A DNA stretch of 24,211 nucleotides from a virus (Duplodnaviria > Caudoviricetes): positions 1 to 24,211 of IMG/VR virus record IMGVR_UViG_3300017780_001408; one strand, 5' to 3'. The position numbers and the translations under genes are program-made. The notes under the pieces were generated by a model. It was not told where the DNA came from. It saw nothing but the letters and a program-made list of their open reading frames with translations, and did not search any database. This document shows positions 5,414 to 18,783 of the stretch, piece by piece. Within the stretch, counting starts at the first letter, position 1. The number at the start of each line of letters is the position of its first letter.

Positions 5414-5647
5414 TCACCTACGGGTTTTGGCGACCAGCGTTTCCGCTTGATCCACCATCTCAAGGAAATCCTTGAGTTCGAGGTTCCGGCCCTGGAGCCG
5501 GGACTTCATTTCTTCACCTGTTGCTTCGCCAAGTCTTTCGAGAGTCTCTTGACGCCGCGATTTTAAAAATTCTACCAAAGGTTGCAGCTCTGGGGTGCGC
5601 ATCAGTGCAAGGCACCGGGCAACCCTTTCGTCAACCCTTATTTGCAC
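5414..5647 (-). CDS. Small hypothetical head-module protein
   Basis: 77 aa helical protein with RLQGR motif; GTG start overlapping the previous gene; between portal and scaffold. Confidence 0.65.
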   Translation of the reverse strand: MQIRVDERVARCLALMRTPELQPLVEFLKSRRQETLERLGEATGEEMKSRLQGRNLELKDFLEMVDQAETLVAKTRR

Positions 5648-5829
5648 ATTCCGTCCGTCTTTGCAGACATCTGGGCGTACTCTTTGCCGCCACGTTTGCC
5701 CATAGCGTCGATGTTGCCATCATTGCCGCCAGCGCCTTGAGTGGCTGGGCCTTTGGACATACCGTCAGTTTTGGCTGACTCTTGTTTGTACTCAGCTGAA
5801 CGCTTTTCCATTGGGTTGATTGCTTGCAT
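5638..5829 (-). CDS. Small protein with internal duplication
   Basis: 63 aa; AAAGGAG RBS; two copies of KR..EY.Q.SAKTDGM.K. Confidence 0.7.
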   Translation of the reverse strand: MQAINPMEKRSAEYKQESAKTDGMSKGPATQGAGGNDGNIDAMGKRGGKEYAQMSAKTDGMCK

Positions 5830-8061: not shown

Positions 8062-9462
8062 TCAAGTCCAGACGTAATCAACTTTCTTGATCTCAACCGA
8101 CTTGCGCTGCCAGGAATCCCCAGTTACGTTACCGTCTGCGTGCAGGCACGCATACTGGTGCGCATCTGCAATGTGGGAATGCGAATTTTTCTCGGGCTTG
8201 TCGTCAGCCTCTCCATTTTGCCGGATTTTATACCGGTATCCGCCCCGAAGGGAAGCAATTAAATGTGTACATGACGGATCAATCAGGTGGGCGGGTTTAC
8301 CATCTACCGAACGAGTTAGCATCTTGTCCACTGCATTGATACGTGCCACAACACTGTTGGACTTGGCAGAAATCACCCGAAAACCCTCGGCTCGCAGGAT
8401 ATCGAACACCGACCGCTCGTCAGTCTGCGCCCTCTGCTGCCCTGCCGGGTCACCCACAATCAGGACATTCATCCCTGGAAACCTGTTGGCCAGCATGGGT
8501 TTGAGCTTCTCCCGGCAGAACCGCAGCGTCCCCATCCCTTCTGAGATTAGGTCGGCAAAGGTCAAGAACCTACCCTGGGCATCAACTTGGTTGATGGTAC
8601 ACGCAGGTGTCAGCCCAAAGTCCATCCCGATGATGAGCGGGTGCGTCTGGAGTTTGATGTAGTTCAGCGCCTGCTTGGCAACGTGTGTGTCCCGATCAAA
8701 CGCCTTGAACACCGGCTGTCCGCTCAGAGACTTACCAAACTCCCCGTGGACGTACACATCTATCCAGTCTTCCTTCTTGCCTTCGCACAAGTTCTCGTAG
8801 TAGTCATCCGGCAGGTACTGCACCCAGTCCGCCTCCTGCGACAACCCGCTGGGCTGTATGGTGACGTGCATGTTCTGGGGCGGCTCAGTGAGCATGGTCT
8901 CCCAAAACGTGTCCATGTCCGGCGGGTTGGTAGCCCCCCATACTTTGTGAATCTGTCTGCCCTGGTCGTCACACGCCCCAACGCCGTTCATCGTCTTGTC
9001 GGGATACCTACCCAGACGACCGGTGAGCGCGTTGTAAATGTCCGGGTTGATCTCCCGGAACTCGTCCATCACACCAAACGTCAGCTGCAACGAGAGCAAC
9101 CGGCGCACGTCGTTGGCGTCATCCAGTCCACGGAACAAGACTTCGCACTCCACGTCGTCAAACTTCAGCTGGAACTTGGAGTTCGTCTTCTCGAGTATCC
9201 CGGCTTCTCCGTCTGGATACCACTTCAAGAAGTCCGGTATGGTCGTGTCCCACAGCATCTGGCGGGTGTTACGAATGACAGCACACCTGCTGCGCCGTAT
9301 CCCATCAGGGGATGCTTTGACCCGCTTGGCTTCATAACCAATCTTGATGAGCGCCGCCGTGGTCTTGGTTGACCCCACCGGCCCCACGATAAAGTTGGAG
9401 AACTTGTCGGACGTCAGAAACGGAACCACCGATATGGGTGGTGTGTAGACAAGATTAGCCAT
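8062..9462 (-). CDS. terL: Terminase large subunit
   Basis: Walker A GPVGSTKT, Walker B GVMDE, motif III ATNPP, RNase H-like nuclease IIGMDFG..., GDPAG, SHIADAHQY. Confidence 0.95.
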   Translation of the reverse strand: MANLVYTPPISVVPFLTSDKFSNFIVGPVGSTKTTAALIKIGYEAKRVKASPDGIRRSRCAVIRNTRQMLWDTTIPDFLKWYPDGEAGILEKTNSKFQLKFDDVECEVLFRGLDDANDVRRLLSLQLTFGVMDEFREINPDIYNALTGRLGRYPDKTMNGVGACDDQGRQIHKVWGATNPPDMDTFWETMLTEPPQNMHVTIQPSGLSQEADWVQYLPDDYYENLCEGKKEDWIDVYVHGEFGKSLSGQPVFKAFDRDTHVAKQALNYIKLQTHPLIIGMDFGLTPACTINQVDAQGRFLTFADLISEGMGTLRFCREKLKPMLANRFPGMNVLIVGDPAGQQRAQTDERSVFDILRAEGFRVISAKSNSVVARINAVDKMLTRSVDGKPAHLIDPSCTHLIASLRGGYRYKIRQNGEADDKPEKNSHSHIADAHQYACLHADGNVTGDSWQRKSVEIKKVDYVWT

Positions 9463-9934
9463 CAATGGTCAGGGGCTGTGCCCCCTGCGGTATGTTTATC
9501 GTGATGCTGAATTTGGGTGTGGCGTTAAGCGCACTCGCGTCAACTTTCGGTGCTTTCAGTCCAGCTACGTCTGTCAGTGCGTTGAACACCGAGAGTTTTT
9601 GCAAGATCGTGGAGTCGTTGCTTATGGCCTGCTTGAACATCATGGACATCATCTCTTCAGCCATGAGTCCCGCCTTGAGGCGAAACGTCATCCCGTTGCG
9701 TTCAAAGTCCGACCGCTGCGCCTGTACAGCTGTGATAAACGGTGGCCACTGGGACAACCGCTCCCACTTCTCGCCTTCAAACCCAAACCTCTGGGCAATC
9801 AGCGCCGGGTCTTCCAACCCCGCAGCACACTCCCACACCAGCTGGGGCGGGATGTCCAACGTGACGTGCGCTTCTGGTGCGCTTGGTGAGAGCGCAAACT
9901 CTGTGTACTCAGAGTACTCGGTGAGGTCATCCAT
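9455..9934 (-). CDS. Terminase small subunit (putative)
   Basis: 159 aa from ATG 9934; directly upstream of and overlapping terL; HTH-like N-terminal part and C-terminal beta strand FSITINI. Confidence 0.65.
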   Translation of the reverse strand: MDDLTEYSEYTEFALSPSAPEAHVTLDIPPQLVWECAAGLEDPALIAQRFGFEGEKWERLSQWPPFITAVQAQRSDFERNGMTFRLKAGLMAEEMMSMMFKQAISNDSTILQKLSVFNALTDVAGLKAPKVDASALNATPKFSITINIPQGAQPLTIDG

Positions 9935-10061
9935 CGCGTTTGGCAAAGAACGCCACCAAGGCTTGTCGCACAACCTCAGACATCGGCACGCCTGTATCTT
10001 TAGTGTACGCCTTGAGCTTGTTGGCGAGGTCTTCGGGGAAGAAGAAGTTGTACCTGACCAC
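9927..10061 (-). CDS. Ribbon-helix-helix (CopG/Arc-like) DNA-binding protein
   Basis: 44 aa ORF missing from the ORF track: MVRYNFFFPEDLANKLKAYTKDTGVPMSEVVRQALVAFFAKRDG; alternating strand, helix-G-x-x-S-E-hh-R-x-A-L; GTG start 1 nt after upstream stop, overlaps terS start. Confidence 0.75.
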   Translation of the reverse strand: MVRYNFFFPEDLANKLKAYTKDTGVPMSEVVRQALVAFFAKRDG

Positions 10062-10062
10062 G

Positions 10063-10230
10063 TCAGTACTTGCCCTTCATGACTGGCTTACCAGCCTTTT
10101 TCATCTTGGCTTCTTCCATTTTCTCGCCTTTTTTGTACAGGGCGGGCGGCATCTTCTTCTCAGACTTCTCTTCTTTGGCAGTTTCTTTGCCTTTGAAGCG
10201 GGACATTAGGGCTGCGGGCATTTTGGCCAT
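10063..10230 (-). CDS. Lys/Glu/Met-rich small basic protein
   Basis: 55 aa ORF missing from track: MAKMPAALMSRFKGKETAKEEKSEKKMPPALYKKGEKMEEAKMKKAGKPVMKGKY; AGGAG RBS and promoter upstream. Confidence 0.75.
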   Translation of the reverse strand: MAKMPAALMSRFKGKETAKEEKSEKKMPPALYKKGEKMEEAKMKKAGKPVMKGKY

Positions 10231-10257: not shown

Positions 10258-10285
10258 ATCTTAACGCGGAAATCAGATGAGTCAA
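10258..10285 (-). promoter_or_regulatory. Sigma70-type promoter for the packaging operon
   Basis: TTGACT (10285-10280) - 16 nt - TAAGAT (10263-10258), about 28 nt upstream of first ATG. Confidence 0.65.
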
Positions 10286-10485
10286 GTGCAGTAACGGGTA
10301 AGAAGCTCGCCTGCCAATTCGTTGAGCCTTGGCTTGAAAATCGGAAAACAACCAAGTCCTCCATCCCCGTTGCGCCGATTTAACAACTGCACGTTGAGAA
10401 GTATAGGGTGTTGGTGTCTCCCATAGGGCAGGGTTGGAATCAACTGAACGGAAGTTCCACGGGGCCAATCCGTTTACACCAACAC
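10286..10485 (-). ncRNA. Candidate structured non-coding RNA (two domains)
   Basis: 10-bp closing stem 10408-10417/10476-10485 enclosing three hairpins; second domain with stems 10286-10292/10386-10392 and 10293-10298/10366-10371 and a 7-bp pseudoknot 10338-10344/10375-10381; bracketed by two promoters. Confidence 0.55.
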
Positions 10486-10489
10486 AAAT

Positions 10490-10517
10490 ATGGTACGTGG
10501 GTGCGGGCGGATGTCAA
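10490..10517 (-). promoter_or_regulatory. Sigma70-type promoter for candidate ncRNA
   Basis: TTGACA (10517-10512) - 16 nt - TACCAT (10495-10490), AT-rich tract further upstream; predicted start falls at the 5' end of the closing stem. Confidence 0.65.
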
Positions 10518-15312: not shown

Positions 15313-16317
15313 ATGAAATACTCAGACCTTTATCGTTCGTGCTTGGCTAACTTCGCCAAGGGTAATGTGCTTGTCCCCTTCATCGAGGGCAAACCCGGCG
15401 GCGGCAAGTCTTCACTGTGCCGTCAAATTGTGCGGGACATGGGCATTGCACCCGAGCGCATCACCGAGTTCAACCCTTCCTTGCGTGACCCCGTGGACAT
15501 CATGGGACTACCTATCACGGACGGCGACTTCTCGCGCTGGTTGCCTCCCCAAGAGTTCTATCGTATTCGTGACGATGGTACTGACCAGCCCTGTGCCTTG
15601 ATCATCGAGGAATTGTCAGATGCACCTGTGCCTATGCAAAACCCCATGTGCCGAGTTATCCTTGACCGGCAGGCAGGCGAACTCAAGCTGCACCCCAAGC
15701 TGTTCATCATTGCGTCAGGTAATGGCACAGAGCACAAGTCTGGTGCTACCCGTATGACTACCAAGTTGTCCGGTCGTATGCAGAACCTGACCTTCGATGA
15801 GAACCTGGACGACTGGTGTGACTGGGCATTCGATGCTGGCATCGACCTCAAGATGATTCAGTTCCTGCGCTTCCGTCCTGCTCTGTTGTCCGACTTCGAT
15901 GCCAATCGCAAGATCAACCCATCGCCCCGCACTTGGTCAATGGCTAACGAGGTGGACGAGACCCTGCCCTCTGACCTGTACTACAGCAACATCGCTGGCT
16001 GTGTGGGTGAGGGTGCGGCGGCTGAGTACACTGGCTTCAAGCGTATCTTCGAGTCCTTGCCCAACATTGACGCCCTGTTGATGAACCCAAGCAAGTCCGA
16101 GGTGCCTGAAGACCCAGCGGTTCGGTTCGCCTTGACTGGTGCAATCGCAGAGCGTTCTAACAAGAGCAACTTCGACCGAGTCATGGAGTACATCAACCGT
16201 ATGCCCAGCGACTTCCAAGTCATGTTTGTAATGGATGCTACCCGCAAAGACCCGAGTGTGCGCAACACCAAAGCGTATGTTCAGTGGACAGTCCAGCATG
16301 GCAACACCTACCTCTGA
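15313..16317 (+). CDS. AAA+ ATPase, MoxR/CbbQ/dynein-related clade
   Basis: Walker A GKPGGGKS, variant Walker B LIIEEL, sensor-1 IIASGN, Arg finger LSGR, sensor-2 PSPRTW. Confidence 0.85.
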   Translation: MKYSDLYRSCLANFAKGNVLVPFIEGKPGGGKSSLCRQIVRDMGIAPERITEFNPSLRDPVDIMGLPITDGDFSRWLPPQEFYRIRDDGTDQPCALIIEELSDAPVPMQNPMCRVILDRQAGELKLHPKLFIIASGNGTEHKSGATRMTTKLSGRMQNLTFDENLDDWCDWAFDAGIDLKMIQFLRFRPALLSDFDANRKINPSPRTWSMANEVDETLPSDLYYSNIAGCVGEGAAAEYTGFKRIFESLPNIDALLMNPSKSEVPEDPAVRFALTGAIAERSNKSNFDRVMEYINRMPSDFQVMFVMDATRKDPSVRNTKAYVQWTVQHGNTYL

Positions 16318-16570
16318 CCTTCAGTGGTTTTCAGCAGAAAGGGCTGGAGCCGAAAAGTTATATCTGGTAAGGTCAGATACACCATTCAACCAGATACTGG
16401 CACAGGTAAGTCAGTTTGAGTCTAGCTACAGAGTGGCATTCCACAATGTAAGCAACAAAGCCCCCCTTACCTATATGCCAGTTGTATTCGATACTTTGGA
16501 CGATGCCAAAGCGTACGCCCGTGTCACTTGTTTATTAACTTTGAAAGTAACTTTGAAAGGTAACTCATGA
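16298..16570 (+). CDS. Hypothetical protein
   Basis: About 90 aa from ATG 16298, fills the gap between ATPase and next gene; F.TLDDAKAY motif; ATGA overlap at the end. Confidence 0.55.
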   Translation: MATPTSDLQWFSAERAGAEKLYLVRSDTPFNQILAQVSQFESSYRVAFHNVSNKAPLTYMPVVFDTLDDAKAYARVTCLLTLKVTLKGNS

Positions 16571-17445
16571 ATCAACTTAAAGTCACCCCCCTAGCCGCCA
16601 AGGCTATGCTTGTCAAACTCACGGTGCGCCGTGCCAACCTGACCCGTAGGGATACATCTGCGGAGTCGTACATCCAGTCCCAGCTGGACGATACATCGTT
16701 GGTGGTCAACTCCAAGTTGTTCCGAGACAAGACCAACCCCATCAACCAGATCATGTCTGCGGCAAGCGAGGTGTACACCACACACAAGAACCGCACACTT
16801 GCCTATGTTGACAAGGGGCCGCGCCTGTTGCCCAACACCGAGTACTTCGACTACTCAACTGAGATGCGCCAGCGCATACAGCAGGTGGACAACATGATGG
16901 CGTTGCACATGCCCAACTACGACAAGTATGTACAGCTTGACATTGCATACCGTAGCTTGCGTCCCAACGGGCGGGCCAGTGTGTCTGACTACCCAACGAT
17001 GGAGGAGTTCCAAGACCGTATGGGGTTTGATCTCAAGTTCTCCCCGCTGCCGGAGGCGAGCCACTTCCTGTTCGACATCAACGAGGATGACAAGGCGGCG
17101 TTTGTCCAGATGATGGAGCAGGTGGAGGTCGGCGCTCGCAACGAGGTGATCAAGACTATGTTGGAACCACTGAGCCACTTGATCGAGAAGCTGAACAAGC
17201 CCATCGGTACTGAGGGTGCGATCTTCCGAGACAGTGCTATCGAGAACATCGTGTCCAACCTTGACCGCGCCAAGAAGCTGAATGTGTCTGATGACCCCGA
17301 GATTTCCGACATGATCGGCAAGCTGGCACAGGCAGTCAGTGTGTATCAGGGCACCAATGTCCTGCGTGAGTCGCCTATCGTCCGAGACCAAGCCGCCAAG
17401 AAGCTGGACGAGATCGCACGGCAGATGGGGGCGTTGTTCCGATGA
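16567..17445 (+). CDS. DUF3150-like coiled-coil protein
   Basis: 292 aa; AMLV.L, SK.LF, GPRLLP, DYP..EE....F...F.PLP, IFRDS.IEN, LNV.DDP; context between MoxR ATPase and vWA gene. Confidence 0.55.
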   Translation: MNQLKVTPLAAKAMLVKLTVRRANLTRRDTSAESYIQSQLDDTSLVVNSKLFRDKTNPINQIMSAASEVYTTHKNRTLAYVDKGPRLLPNTEYFDYSTEMRQRIQQVDNMMALHMPNYDKYVQLDIAYRSLRPNGRASVSDYPTMEEFQDRMGFDLKFSPLPEASHFLFDINEDDKAAFVQMMEQVEVGARNEVIKTMLEPLSHLIEKLNKPIGTEGAIFRDSAIENIVSNLDRAKKLNVSDDPEISDMIGKLAQAVSVYQGTNVLRESPIVRDQAAKKLDEIARQMGALFR

Positions 17446-17663
17446 TTACCCTGACTGAGTTGGAGGTTGTGTTGGGCATTGGTATTGGTGTGCTTCTGTA
17501 TGTGATTCACATTCACCGCAGGATGATTGAGGCGCAGAGGGAGGCAATGCGTATGCTGATGCACACACTGAGTGGAGTGGCTGATAAGAAGATCACCCTT
17601 GTGCGAGACCGAGAGGGTGACATCCATGTTCGTAACCAGGAGAAACTAAATGGCAATTCATAA
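17442..17663 (+). CDS. Small membrane-anchored protein
   Basis: 73 aa with N-terminal hydrophobic segment VVLGIGIGVLLYVI; ATGA overlap. Confidence 0.65.
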   Translation: MITLTELEVVLGIGIGVLLYVIHIHRRMIEAQREAMRMLMHTLSGVADKKITLVRDREGDIHVRNQEKLNGNS

Positions 17664-18783
17664 GGCATCAAATATGGAGAAGGCAAGGGCGCAGATCGTG
17701 CTCTACCATCCGTTCGTGGCGTCAATACTGTTGCGCCGTCCGTTCATCGAGACCCGAGACATCCCGACATTGGCAGTCGATGGTAAGGCGCGTATCTACT
17801 TCAACCCTGACTTTGTTGCCAAGCTGACTGTTCCGCAGTTGATATGGGGCTTGTGTCATGAGGTATTCCATGTGGTCGGTCAGCACTCTGTTCGTGTGGG
17901 TAATCGCAACCGCAAGAAGTGGAACTATGCAGGTGACGCATGGATTAACGACACACTCGATGAAGCCAAGATGGGTGAGCGTATCCCCAAGTGTGTAGAT
18001 ATGCCAGGGTCTAAGGACGACACAGTCGAGAACATCTACGCTAACTTGCCAGACAATGGCAGTGGTGATGATGACGGTGATGAGGACGGGTTGGGTGACG
18101 ACATCCACTACACCGATGGTGTCGGGGACTCAGGCAAGCCCATGACCCCTGATGAAGTGCGTGAGATCGAGGGCACGATCAAGGTAGAGATTGCCGAGGC
18201 AGCACAAGCAGCGAAGATGCAGGGCAAGCTGTCAGGTAGGTTGGCAGATATGGTGGCAGACATCTTGGATGTGAAGACCCCGTGGTTTGAGATTCTGGAG
18301 AAGCACATGGTCAGCCGTGTCAATCAGGGTCAGACATGGCGGCGTAAGAACCGCAGGTTCGAGGTCTATCTGCCCAGCGTAGACAAGCTGCCACAGATGG
18401 GAGAACTTGTTATTCAGGTTGACGTATCAGGTTCTATTAGCAAAACAGAATTAGCAGCGTATAATGGTCACCTGTCCAGAATCATTGAGCAGTGCCGCCC
18501 AAGCAAGGTTCATGTGTTGTACACCGACACGCAGGTTCAGAAGCACGTTGAGTTTGACTGCGGTGAGGAAGTCCACCTTGAGTTCTATTCTGGCGGCGGC
18601 ACGGATATGCCAGCAGGGTTTGACTACTGTGCCGAGCAGGGTATCGAGCCTGATGTATTCGTGTGCTTGACCGATGGCTACACAGGCTTTGGGGAAGACC
18701 CCGGCTATCCCGTTGTCTGGTGTATTAGCAGCGATGTAGAAGCCCCTTGGGGGGAAAACATCCACTTTGAATTGGAGCAGTAA
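17650..18783 (+). CDS. Putative metallopeptidase + vWA domain protein (DUF2201-like)
   Basis: HEVFH zincin motif, WNYAGDAWIN, acidic linker, MIDAS DVSGS...GGGTD...LTDG. Confidence 0.85.
   Translation: MAIHKASNMEKARAQIVLYHPFVASILLRRPFIETRDIPTLAVDGKARIYFNPDFVAKLTVPQLIWGLCHEVFHVVGQHSVRVGNRNRKKWNYAGDAWINDTLDEAKMGERIPKCVDMPGSKDDTVENIYANLPDNGSGDDDGDEDGLGDDIHYTDGVGDSGKPMTPDEVREIEGTIKVEIAEAAQAAKMQGKLSGRLADMVADILDVKTPWFEILEKHMVSRVNQGQTWRRKNRRFEVYLPSVDKLPQMGELVIQVDVSGSISKTELAAYNGHLSRIIEQCRPSKVHVLYTDTQVQKHVEFDCGEEVHLEFYSGGGTDMPAGFDYCAEQGIEPDVFVCLTDGYTGFGEDPGYPVVWCISSDVEAPWGENIHFELEQ

Follow-up and report, generated by a model that had tools for sequence, protein, structure and literature searches.

The closest described relative of the RNA studied here is Atu_At1 (Rfam RF02496), typed in Rfam as 'Gene; sRNA' and described as an sRNA of Rhizobiales. 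At1 itself (pAt_55271R) is a 113-nt RNA carried by the At plasmid of Agrobacterium fabrum C58, where it ends ~50 nt before ligD. It has been validated by Northern blotting as a 113-118-nt Agrobacterium RNA, with an 11.6-fold rise in stationary phase (PMC3384568, PMC3738593). Table 2 of Wilms 2012 lists one Northern size for it, 115 nt, with the strongest signal at high density (PMC3384568). In Lee 2013, the source of the 11.6-fold stationary induction, RPKM rises from 45 (log phase) to 866 (stationary phase) and 3597 (AB medium); TEX treatment caused no loss, and Table 4 lists a band of ~140 nt (PMC3738593). We found no paper on the function or structure of At1 in the open-access literature, and PMC10085705 makes no mention of it. 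On the viral side, supplement rows of Fremin 2023 record two recoveries of RF02496 from IMG/VR, which the main text does not discuss (PMC10690425).

Here we present a genome-comparative analysis of a phage-borne copy located in a 24-kb linear virus record (IMGVR_UViG_3300017780_001408; 24,211 nt, hereafter the window), for which the top read holders are freshwater or aquatic metagenomes. An initial annotation had placed in it an undescribed, pseudoknotted non-coding RNA upstream of the packaging genes, possibly acting like the prohead RNA of phi29. A family filed for more than a decade as a plain Agrobacterium sRNA was found to carry hallmarks of a candidate ribozyme or aptamer, namely two covarying pseudoknots and a near-invariant junction, and these hallmarks are preserved in two bacterial phyla as well as in several groups of phages.

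Methods

Homologues were collected with a 20-base core pattern, which matched 41 viral contigs (14 of the first 20 pass the Rfam cut-off), and with a similar core pattern on genomes, which gave 117 loci, 37 of them set aside as coding, chance or truncated. Before the neighbour analysis, 38 loci were removed by eye: 36 coding or chance matches, one truncated copy and a duplicate of the window (L042). Many of the coding or chance matches are presumably nusA. Among the viral rows, 3 of 93 were discarded as false (L176, L233, L253), leaving 90. Alignment A2 was reduced from 125 rows to 121 homologues by leaving out L096, L123, L124 and L196, and the RNA tree was drawn without 6 of the 49 rows of alignment A3, which were truncated or decayed. 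A3 was enriched by hand for variants and provides examples rather than frequencies. The invariance of the core in A2 was partly imposed by the search patterns, the unbiased checks being a core-free scan and a set of copies found by covariance model.

Results

Scanned with cmscan, positions 10288-10394 of the window (minus strand) matched RF02496 at 77.2 bits, with a gathering cut-off of 60, over model positions 1-108 of 108; the alignment flagged no non-canonical pair and the nested structure was that of the family consensus. Our own model R1 returned the same RNA, at 98.5 bits, as its sole strong match in the window, the window having been part of the R1 training set. The window RNA and At1 have the same length, the same nested stems P1, P3, P4 and P5 and the same core, and the At1 sequence itself holds both of the pseudoknots described below. 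On this sequence evidence, the window RNA is a phage-borne member of the Atu_At1 family. The initial annotation had regarded it as undescribed and had named a hit to a described Rfam family beforehand as the outcome that would refute this; the match above the gathering score, together with the presence of RF02496 in published IMG/VR tables (PMC10690425, supplement rows), withdraws that claim. The consensus line of RF02496 in the cmscan output lacks both pseudoknots and gives P2 four base pairs; since covariance models drop pseudoknots, the Rfam seed alignment could nevertheless hold them. The double-pseudoknot architecture, the link to EcfG and the rules of phage placement appear to be new.

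Table 1. Coordinates of the RNA, its structural elements and the surrounding features in the window
Feature	Position	Strand	Observation
Atu_At1-family (RF02496) RNA gene, P1 to P1, 107 nt	10286..10392	-	Rfam 77.2 bits; R1 98.5 bits
Closing stem P1 (variable), 5' strand; partner strand 10286-10292	10386..10392	-	double changes at 7/7 pairs; 75% of cells paired
P2/L2, 9-nt loop closed by one pair, G10384-C10374; PK1 5' strand = 10375-10381	10374..10384	-	
P3a 5' strand, pairs with 10293-10297	10367..10371	-	88% paired, 5/5 pairs compensatory
P3b 5' strand (GGAG/CUUC), pairs with 10302-10305	10359..10362	-	97.7% paired, top mutual-information pair
P4 hairpin, 10349-56 with 10328-35	10328..10356	-	88% paired, 7/7 pairs compensatory
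P5 3-bp hairpin, 10327, 10326 and 10324 with 10313-15; U10325 bulged; L5 A-rich, 8-nt (10316-23)	10313..10327	-	
PK2, 2 bp, L5 C10321-G10320 with junction C10309-G10308	10306..10321	-	compensatory CG/CG changes
Predicted promoter of the RNA itself: TATACT, a -10-like hexamer 7 nt before P1, without recognisable -35	10400..10405	-	not called by two-hexamer scan
Sigma-70-like promoter of downstream genes, abuts RNA 3' end	10258..10285	-	in 14/18 clade members
55-aa Lys-rich ORF, first gene past the RNA	10063..10230	-	without PHROG or Pfam match
172-aa ORF, small-terminase candidate by position only	9455..9973	-	without PHROG or Pfam match; nearest Atlas clusters are unnamed phage proteins
Terminase large subunit (terL)	8062..9465	-	phrog_2, E 4.8e-24
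Second, separate structured element	10408..10485	-	~78 nt, closing stem ~10 bp, behind promoter 10490-10517

The window carries a leftward late operon comprising the 55-aa and 172-aa ORFs, terL, a portal/adaptor gene and the major head protein. This operon and a rightward one point apart across ~1 kb of intergenic DNA, and the RNA is located in this gap on the late strand, its 3' end 56 nt before the first late-operon gene. As first noted, the -35 hexamer of the next promoter starts at 10285, abutting the RNA, and the -35/-10 pair recurs in 14 of the 18 phages of the clade; the downstream genes thus have their own promoter, and the view that the RNA is not the 5' UTR of the packaging genes holds. 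No tRNA was detected in the window by ARAGORN, no terminator was called near the RNA, and three BLAST queries against cultured phages returned chance matches only. A 53-aa ORF (10282-10443) spanning the RNA was rejected as its function because homologues differ by 1-2-nt indels.

Two small Lys/Met-rich ORFs of the window, 10063-10230 (-) and 5638-5829 (-), had no PHROG match; Lys-rich ORFs resembling them end flush with the RNA in two other loci (L003 and L218). Further along, three products are encoded within 15313-18783 (+): an ATPase (phrog_1297), an unknown protein of 292 aa, and one of 377 aa labelled HNH by PHROGs (phrog_1314). The sequence of this last protein looks more like a metallopeptidase-vWA protein, and the region may be a MoxR/vWA chaperone module.

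The second element, between the promoter at 10490-10517 and the At1-like RNA, is also structured (z -2.7 on the minus strand, -3.3 on the plus strand). It matched nine viral loci, eight of which lack an adjacent At1-like RNA and place the element behind a -10-like box, and both sides of its inner stem change in relatives. It had no Rfam match, a looser scan added no members, and it is possibly an undescribed phage RNA. In two sequencing runs it was assembled as a short piece at a depth of 125-143, with flanks at 7-10.

Fold and covariation

The predicted folding energy of the minus strand is -37.6 kcal/mol (z -3.0), a value matched or bettered by 1 of 200 shuffles, compared with z -1.4 on the plus strand, and paired columns of the 121 homologues contain 240 G-U cells versus 106 A-C cells, an excess that favours the minus strand as the RNA. 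In a MAFFT alignment the whole structure is 89.5% paired, versus 65.7% when shuffled and at most 47.8% when slid, and a structure-free mutual information analysis ranks pairs of PK1, P3b and P4 on top. The covariation check proposed at the outset returned compensatory changes in stems and pseudoknots alike, and a genuine pseudoknotted non-coding RNA is supported.

Several helices of the initial annotation were recovered as drawn, others with a different register. The closing stem (10386-92/10286-92) and the stem contiguous with it (10366-71/10293-98) are both present, P3a being predicted to stack on P1, and P1 is weak or absent in phage copies lying flush with a stop codon. The proposed GAGGA/UUCUU helix was off register, its five pairs being 32-64% canonical among homologues; it is replaced by GGAG/CUUC (10362-59/10302-05), with 93-100% canonical pairs and strong covariation, followed by a 2-nt purine-A junction (10358-57). 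The CUUGGUUG hairpin exists with a shifted register, as an 8-bp stem with a 13-nt loop (10336-48), the innermost pair as first read being canonical in 40% of homologues versus 83% for the shifted one. This loop, L4, consists of a U-tract (10345-48), the PK1 3' strand (10338-44) and UC. As for the GCUC..GAGC hairpin, natural variants break it and preserve the three pairs of 10327/26/24 with 10313-15; it appears 85-100% canonical because those positions rarely vary.

The 7-bp pairing of 10375-81 with 10338-44 (PK1) was fully recovered, and its description as a loop-to-linker contact was not: G10384-C10374, paired in 120 of the 121 homologues and changed from G-C to A-U in five, closes the 5' strand into a 9-nt loop, making PK1 a loop-loop, or kissing-loop, interaction. 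PK1 is 98.3% paired across the 121 homologues, with compensatory changes at six of its seven pairs. In homologues selected by anchors that ignore complementarity, all seven pairs are Watson-Crick in 185 of 214 and six of seven in 17 more, and the pairing is perfect across dozens of different heptamers. A scan free of both core and complementarity constraints returned 120 loci, 17 with a perfect 5-bp PK1, and all 15 distinct perfect-PK1 loci carry the core or a compensated variant. The spacing from the G to L4 was 35-38 nt in 188 of 188 cases, for a finder that allowed 31-45.

A second pseudoknot, PK2 (10321-20 with 10308-09), had been overlooked. It pairs the CG of L5 with a CG three bases beyond P5, and changes from CG/CG to CU/AG in one phage lineage and to GG/CC once in phages and once in a bacterial subtype, so that compensatory change has three separate origins on the RNA tree. 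Among 46 matched copies of 50 model-found bacterial ones, 39 are CG/CG, four GG/CC and three changed on one side; PK2 is hence kept in 43 of 46, the three exceptions being low-scoring. P5 itself shows swaps from G-C to A-U in three loci and from C-G to G-C or U-A in two. Covariation across homologues shows the stems and both pseudoknots, from which a compact, double-pseudoknotted shape is predicted.

One bacterial subtype (L580, L583, L584 and L586, in genomes G361, G325, G333 and G377) has a rewritten core and scores 57-70 bits on RF02496. It carries GGG in L5 and CCC in the junction, a shorter J5/3 and CAC instead of AAC before P4, and may have a different specificity.

Distribution

True copies occur in Hyphomicrobiales and, beyond the Rhizobiales of the RF02496 description, in Sphingomonadales, Bacteroidota, one Gracilibacteria MAG and several phage groups, the latter including a P1-less form flush with stop codons. 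With the 121-homologue model and strict filters, the RNA was detected in 37 of 121 rhizobial-family genomes (up to four per genome), in 3 of 150 other Bacteroidia and in none of 150 other Alphaproteobacteria. Its bacterial homes include genomes and plasmids. On a short tree drawn from its midpoint, one starred branch groups the copies of Hyphomicrobiales and another those of Bacteroidota, amid more diverse phage copies; without a root, the direction of transfer is unreadable. Viral loci fall into few clades, and their counts are therefore not independent. Decayed or part-deleted rhizobial copies were also observed (L419, L577, L579, L582, L585, L094, L096, L107 and L124), some beside intact ones, which suggests frequent gain and loss.

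Expression signals

Just upstream of P1, 25 of 31 model-found rhizobial copies carry a GAAC-N16-18-CGTT-type motif, present in 44 of 4398 background windows (1%). This matches the consensus reported for EcfG, GGAAC-N17-20-GTT (PMC6599016), the general-stress sigma factor active in stationary phase (PMC3616915), and the rhizobial copies are accordingly predicted from their upstream sequences to stand behind an EcfG-type promoter. The promoter of At1 itself has the GGAAC box and a poor second box. The window's copy lacks the EcfG-type promoter and has a sigma-70-like -10 box instead: in all 18 phages of its clade a TAnnnT hexamer lies a few bases before P1, with no clear -35. Two other phage copies carry TATAAATA upstream, which we take to be the T4 late promoter. 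Four runs examined for expression yielded low-depth contigs of relatives, carrying neither strand nor end information. The window's copy is likely transcribed on its own, late in infection.

Neighbouring genes and placement

Of 47 bacterial loci, 26 could be scored for the first Pfam-matched gene downstream of the RNA. In 15 of them this gene is opposite in strand and in 11 it shares the strand of the RNA, the same-strand genes belonging to 10 different families. The RNA is thus a standalone gene, independent of its neighbour, and a cis riboswitch was rejected because no downstream gene is consistent. Recurrent bacterial neighbours of the stress-regulon kind are ligD, Ku, an ECF sigma factor, HWE kinases, catalase, DUF2383, SRAP and a DinB-type polymerase, catalase and DUF2383 adjoining the Bacteroidota copies; in one locus (L114) the RNA lies just before Ku. 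Some ku and ligD genes have been reported under RpoE2 control (PMC6379672). In the Gracilibacteria MAG (L092), the RNA is located ~50 nt before a same-strand class II aminoacyl-tRNA synthetase gene.

Phage loci present other associations. Of 70 loci, 16, all of one type, have terL no more than 3 kb away. A Dps/ferritin-like gene occurs at up to the same distance in 30 of the 70, usually flush, and these Dps phages form one lineage on the RNA tree; each set being of one type, neither supplies independent counts. More generally, 58 of 90 distinct viral members begin between -2 and +5 nt from the end of a stop codon, behind about a dozen unrelated genes that include Dps, holin, lysis and ribonucleotide reductase genes as well as small Lys-rich ORFs. 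The 6-bp P1 is missing in 49 of these 58 copies; all 18 copies of the terL clade have P1 and the -10 box. In freshwater-type phages (L002, L020, L182, L635 and ~25 more), the stop codon of the Dps/ferritin-like gene abuts or lies inside the 5' motif of the RNA, with a convergent unnamed ORF on the RNA's other side. The 500-nt gap behind Dps-type copies was considered as further RNA and rejected in favour of this convergent ORF.

In three near-identical copies (L175:8-756, L165:2575-3063 and L192:1989-2477) the RNA directly follows a phage tmRNA without a gap, and in the first of them three tRNAs follow on the same strand. It also lies in or near tRNA arrays in L234 and L032, on the opposite strand in one of them. 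In total, 60 viral loci were checked and 5 have tRNA or tmRNA neighbours, these 5 including the three near-identical copies.

The flush placement may reflect genome compaction alone, a convergent gene crowding the other side in Dps phages. The footprint of a ribosome on the stop codon would extend over the 5' strand of PK1. RNase E cleavage is reported to be enriched around stop codons generally (PMC5222698), and such cuts would do no more than set the RNA free.

Discussion

Our preferred reading, to which we assign a probability of about 0.4, is that of a free RNA, expressed under stress in bacteria and late in phages, whose shape lets it work on a conserved component of the host, the translation machinery being the likeliest one. 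In such a model, P4 would bend back at the P3b/P4/P5 junction, bringing L4 and L2 into a kissing contact in cis, while the U-tract could lace the major groove of PK1 as U.A-U triples, by analogy with the telomerase and SAM-II pseudoknots. P5, PK2 and the invariant adenosines would then form a pocket or binding face. Bacteria would produce the RNA under the general stress response and phages late in infection, the P1-less phage form being either released from, or working at, the 3' end of an mRNA beside a terminating ribosome, and the RNA would in trans keep the stressed or infected cell productive. Three separate contexts, namely stationary-phase induction, the tmRNA/tRNA clusters and the flush stop codons, suggest translation as the most probable target. 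Context is the basis of this link, with tRNA or tmRNA neighbours in few loci (5/60), and the patchy presence of the RNA among genomes, with decayed copies, counts against this best explanation. So do the possible origin of the flush placement in compaction, the general enrichment of RNase E cuts at stop codons, the small number of viral clades and the poor second box of the At1 promoter. A bolder version, slightly less probable and to be taken as tentative, is that RF02496 represents a new class of small double-pseudoknot RNA machine, either a ribosome-binding factor or a gated ribozyme, used by alphaproteobacterial stress regulons and by unrelated phage late programmes, in which the terminating ribosome would switch the kissing loop of the P1-less form.

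A conditional ribozyme, self-cleaving or trans-acting and gated by a cofactor or by translation, is an unlikely competitor. P5, L5 and PK2 would constitute its active site and PK1 an accelerating tertiary contact. The two pseudoknots with an invariant junction, the patchy spread and the placement at the ends of genes or tmRNAs would all suit such a molecule; its 3-bp hairpin, 8-nt loop and 2-bp pseudoknot resemble the P3/L3/P1.1 unit of HDV, and a ribosome at the stop codon covering the PK1 5' strand might serve as the gate. Yet At1 gives a single band of full length on Northern blots (115 nt according to Wilms, ~140 nt according to Lee), with no fragments listed in the tables concerned (PMC3384568, PMC3738593), and Rfam returned the core of no known ribozyme class, either for the window (E<=1) or for 15 divergent loci (E<=0.05). 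Furthermore, the C that would mimic C75 of HDV becomes G in compensated variants, and the strand order is unlike that of HDV.

Marginally less credible is an aptamer for a small molecule or metal, serving under stress as a sponge or store in trans, for example of iron, an alarmone or a damaged nucleotide. The compact H-type mini-pseudoknot and the U-rich triple-helix candidate resemble the pockets of preQ1-I and SAM-II, and the occurrence of a ferritin/Dps-like gene no further than 3 kb away in 30 of 70 phage loci, along with catalase and DUF2383 beside Bacteroidota copies, would fit with such a role. Against it, the Dps phages amount to one lineage on the RNA tree, and the RNA has neither an expression platform nor a consistent downstream gene.

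A cis element appears doubtful, whether it were to stabilise the 3' ends of late phage mRNAs, mark them for processing, or serve as a 5' UTR switch of bacterial stress genes of the ligD/Ku type. The flush 3' position in 58 of 90 viral members would agree with a role at mRNA 3' ends and, for the 5' UTR switch, At1 lies ~50 nt before ligD and L114 before Ku, some ku/ligD genes being RpoE2-controlled (PMC6379672). However, the next gene is opposite in 15 of 26 bacterial loci and the same-strand genes span 10 families, the window's downstream genes have their own promoter, and a single family would have to play contrary roles in cis, one in phages and the other in bacteria.

An ordinary Hfq-type base-pairing sRNA of the stress regulon is improbable, despite the Rfam label 'Gene; sRNA' and the existence of EcfG-driven sRNAs such as GsrN and ReC64 (PMC5869019, PMC3892343). 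The RNA's only long loops are free to vary and are locked into each other, leaving no conserved exposed seed, which disfavours this reading; in addition, conservation among unpaired bases is that of short junctions rich in A and U, no terminator was called near the RNA, and the RNA is conserved across two phyla and phages. No At1 row was found, by coordinate or name, in Table S5 of an Hfq co-IP study, a table that may be incomplete (PMC4201532).

The prohead role suggested at first, with oligomers formed through the 7-bp loop pairing on the packaging motor, is very improbable: although the RNA lies 56 nt before a late operon with terL and portal, and covariation is blind to cis versus homo-oligomeric trans loop-loop pairing, no more than 16 of 70 viral loci have terL nearby, bacterial copies stand under EcfG promoters among unrelated, non-phage genes, the phage motor is of the terL-portal rather than the phi29 type, and Rfam gave no pRNA match.

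The predicted regulator (EcfG), the abundance of At1 in a laboratory strain and the natural compensatory variants, usable as mutant/rescue pairs, make the function directly testable. If ribosome binding or catalysis were confirmed, the family would represent a new RNA class for bacterial stress survival and for the phage tool kit.

Comparison with known systems

The likenesses to HDV, SAM-II, preQ1-I, telomerase, pRNA, GOLLD and ROOL are general analogies, compared here by Rfam matching, which gave no matches. The prohead RNA of phi29 is a phage-encoded RNA of ~110-120 nt that uses loop-loop pairing. The At1-like RNA shares with it size, loop-loop pairing and phage encoding, but is not consistently linked to packaging genes, is also present in bacteria behind a stress promoter and accompanies a terL-type motor. 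HDV-like and theta ribozymes combine a double pseudoknot with a 3-bp hairpin, an 8-nt loop and a 2-bp pairing, and their phage copies lie near tRNA-like genes; the At1-like RNA differs in strand order, has no invariant catalytic C and, for At1, is full-length in vivo. GOLLD, ROOL and the raiA-motif are highly structured orphan RNAs of bacteria and phages, tied to stress or to tRNA clusters; the At1-like RNA is much smaller and has no Rfam match to them. Closest in setting are GsrN and ReC64, which are likewise RNAs of ~100 nt behind an EcfG promoter (PMC5869019, PMC3892343). GsrN, however, pairs with mRNAs through an exposed C-rich loop and resides at the phyR locus (PMC5869019), whereas the loops of the At1-like RNA pair with each other and its locus varies.
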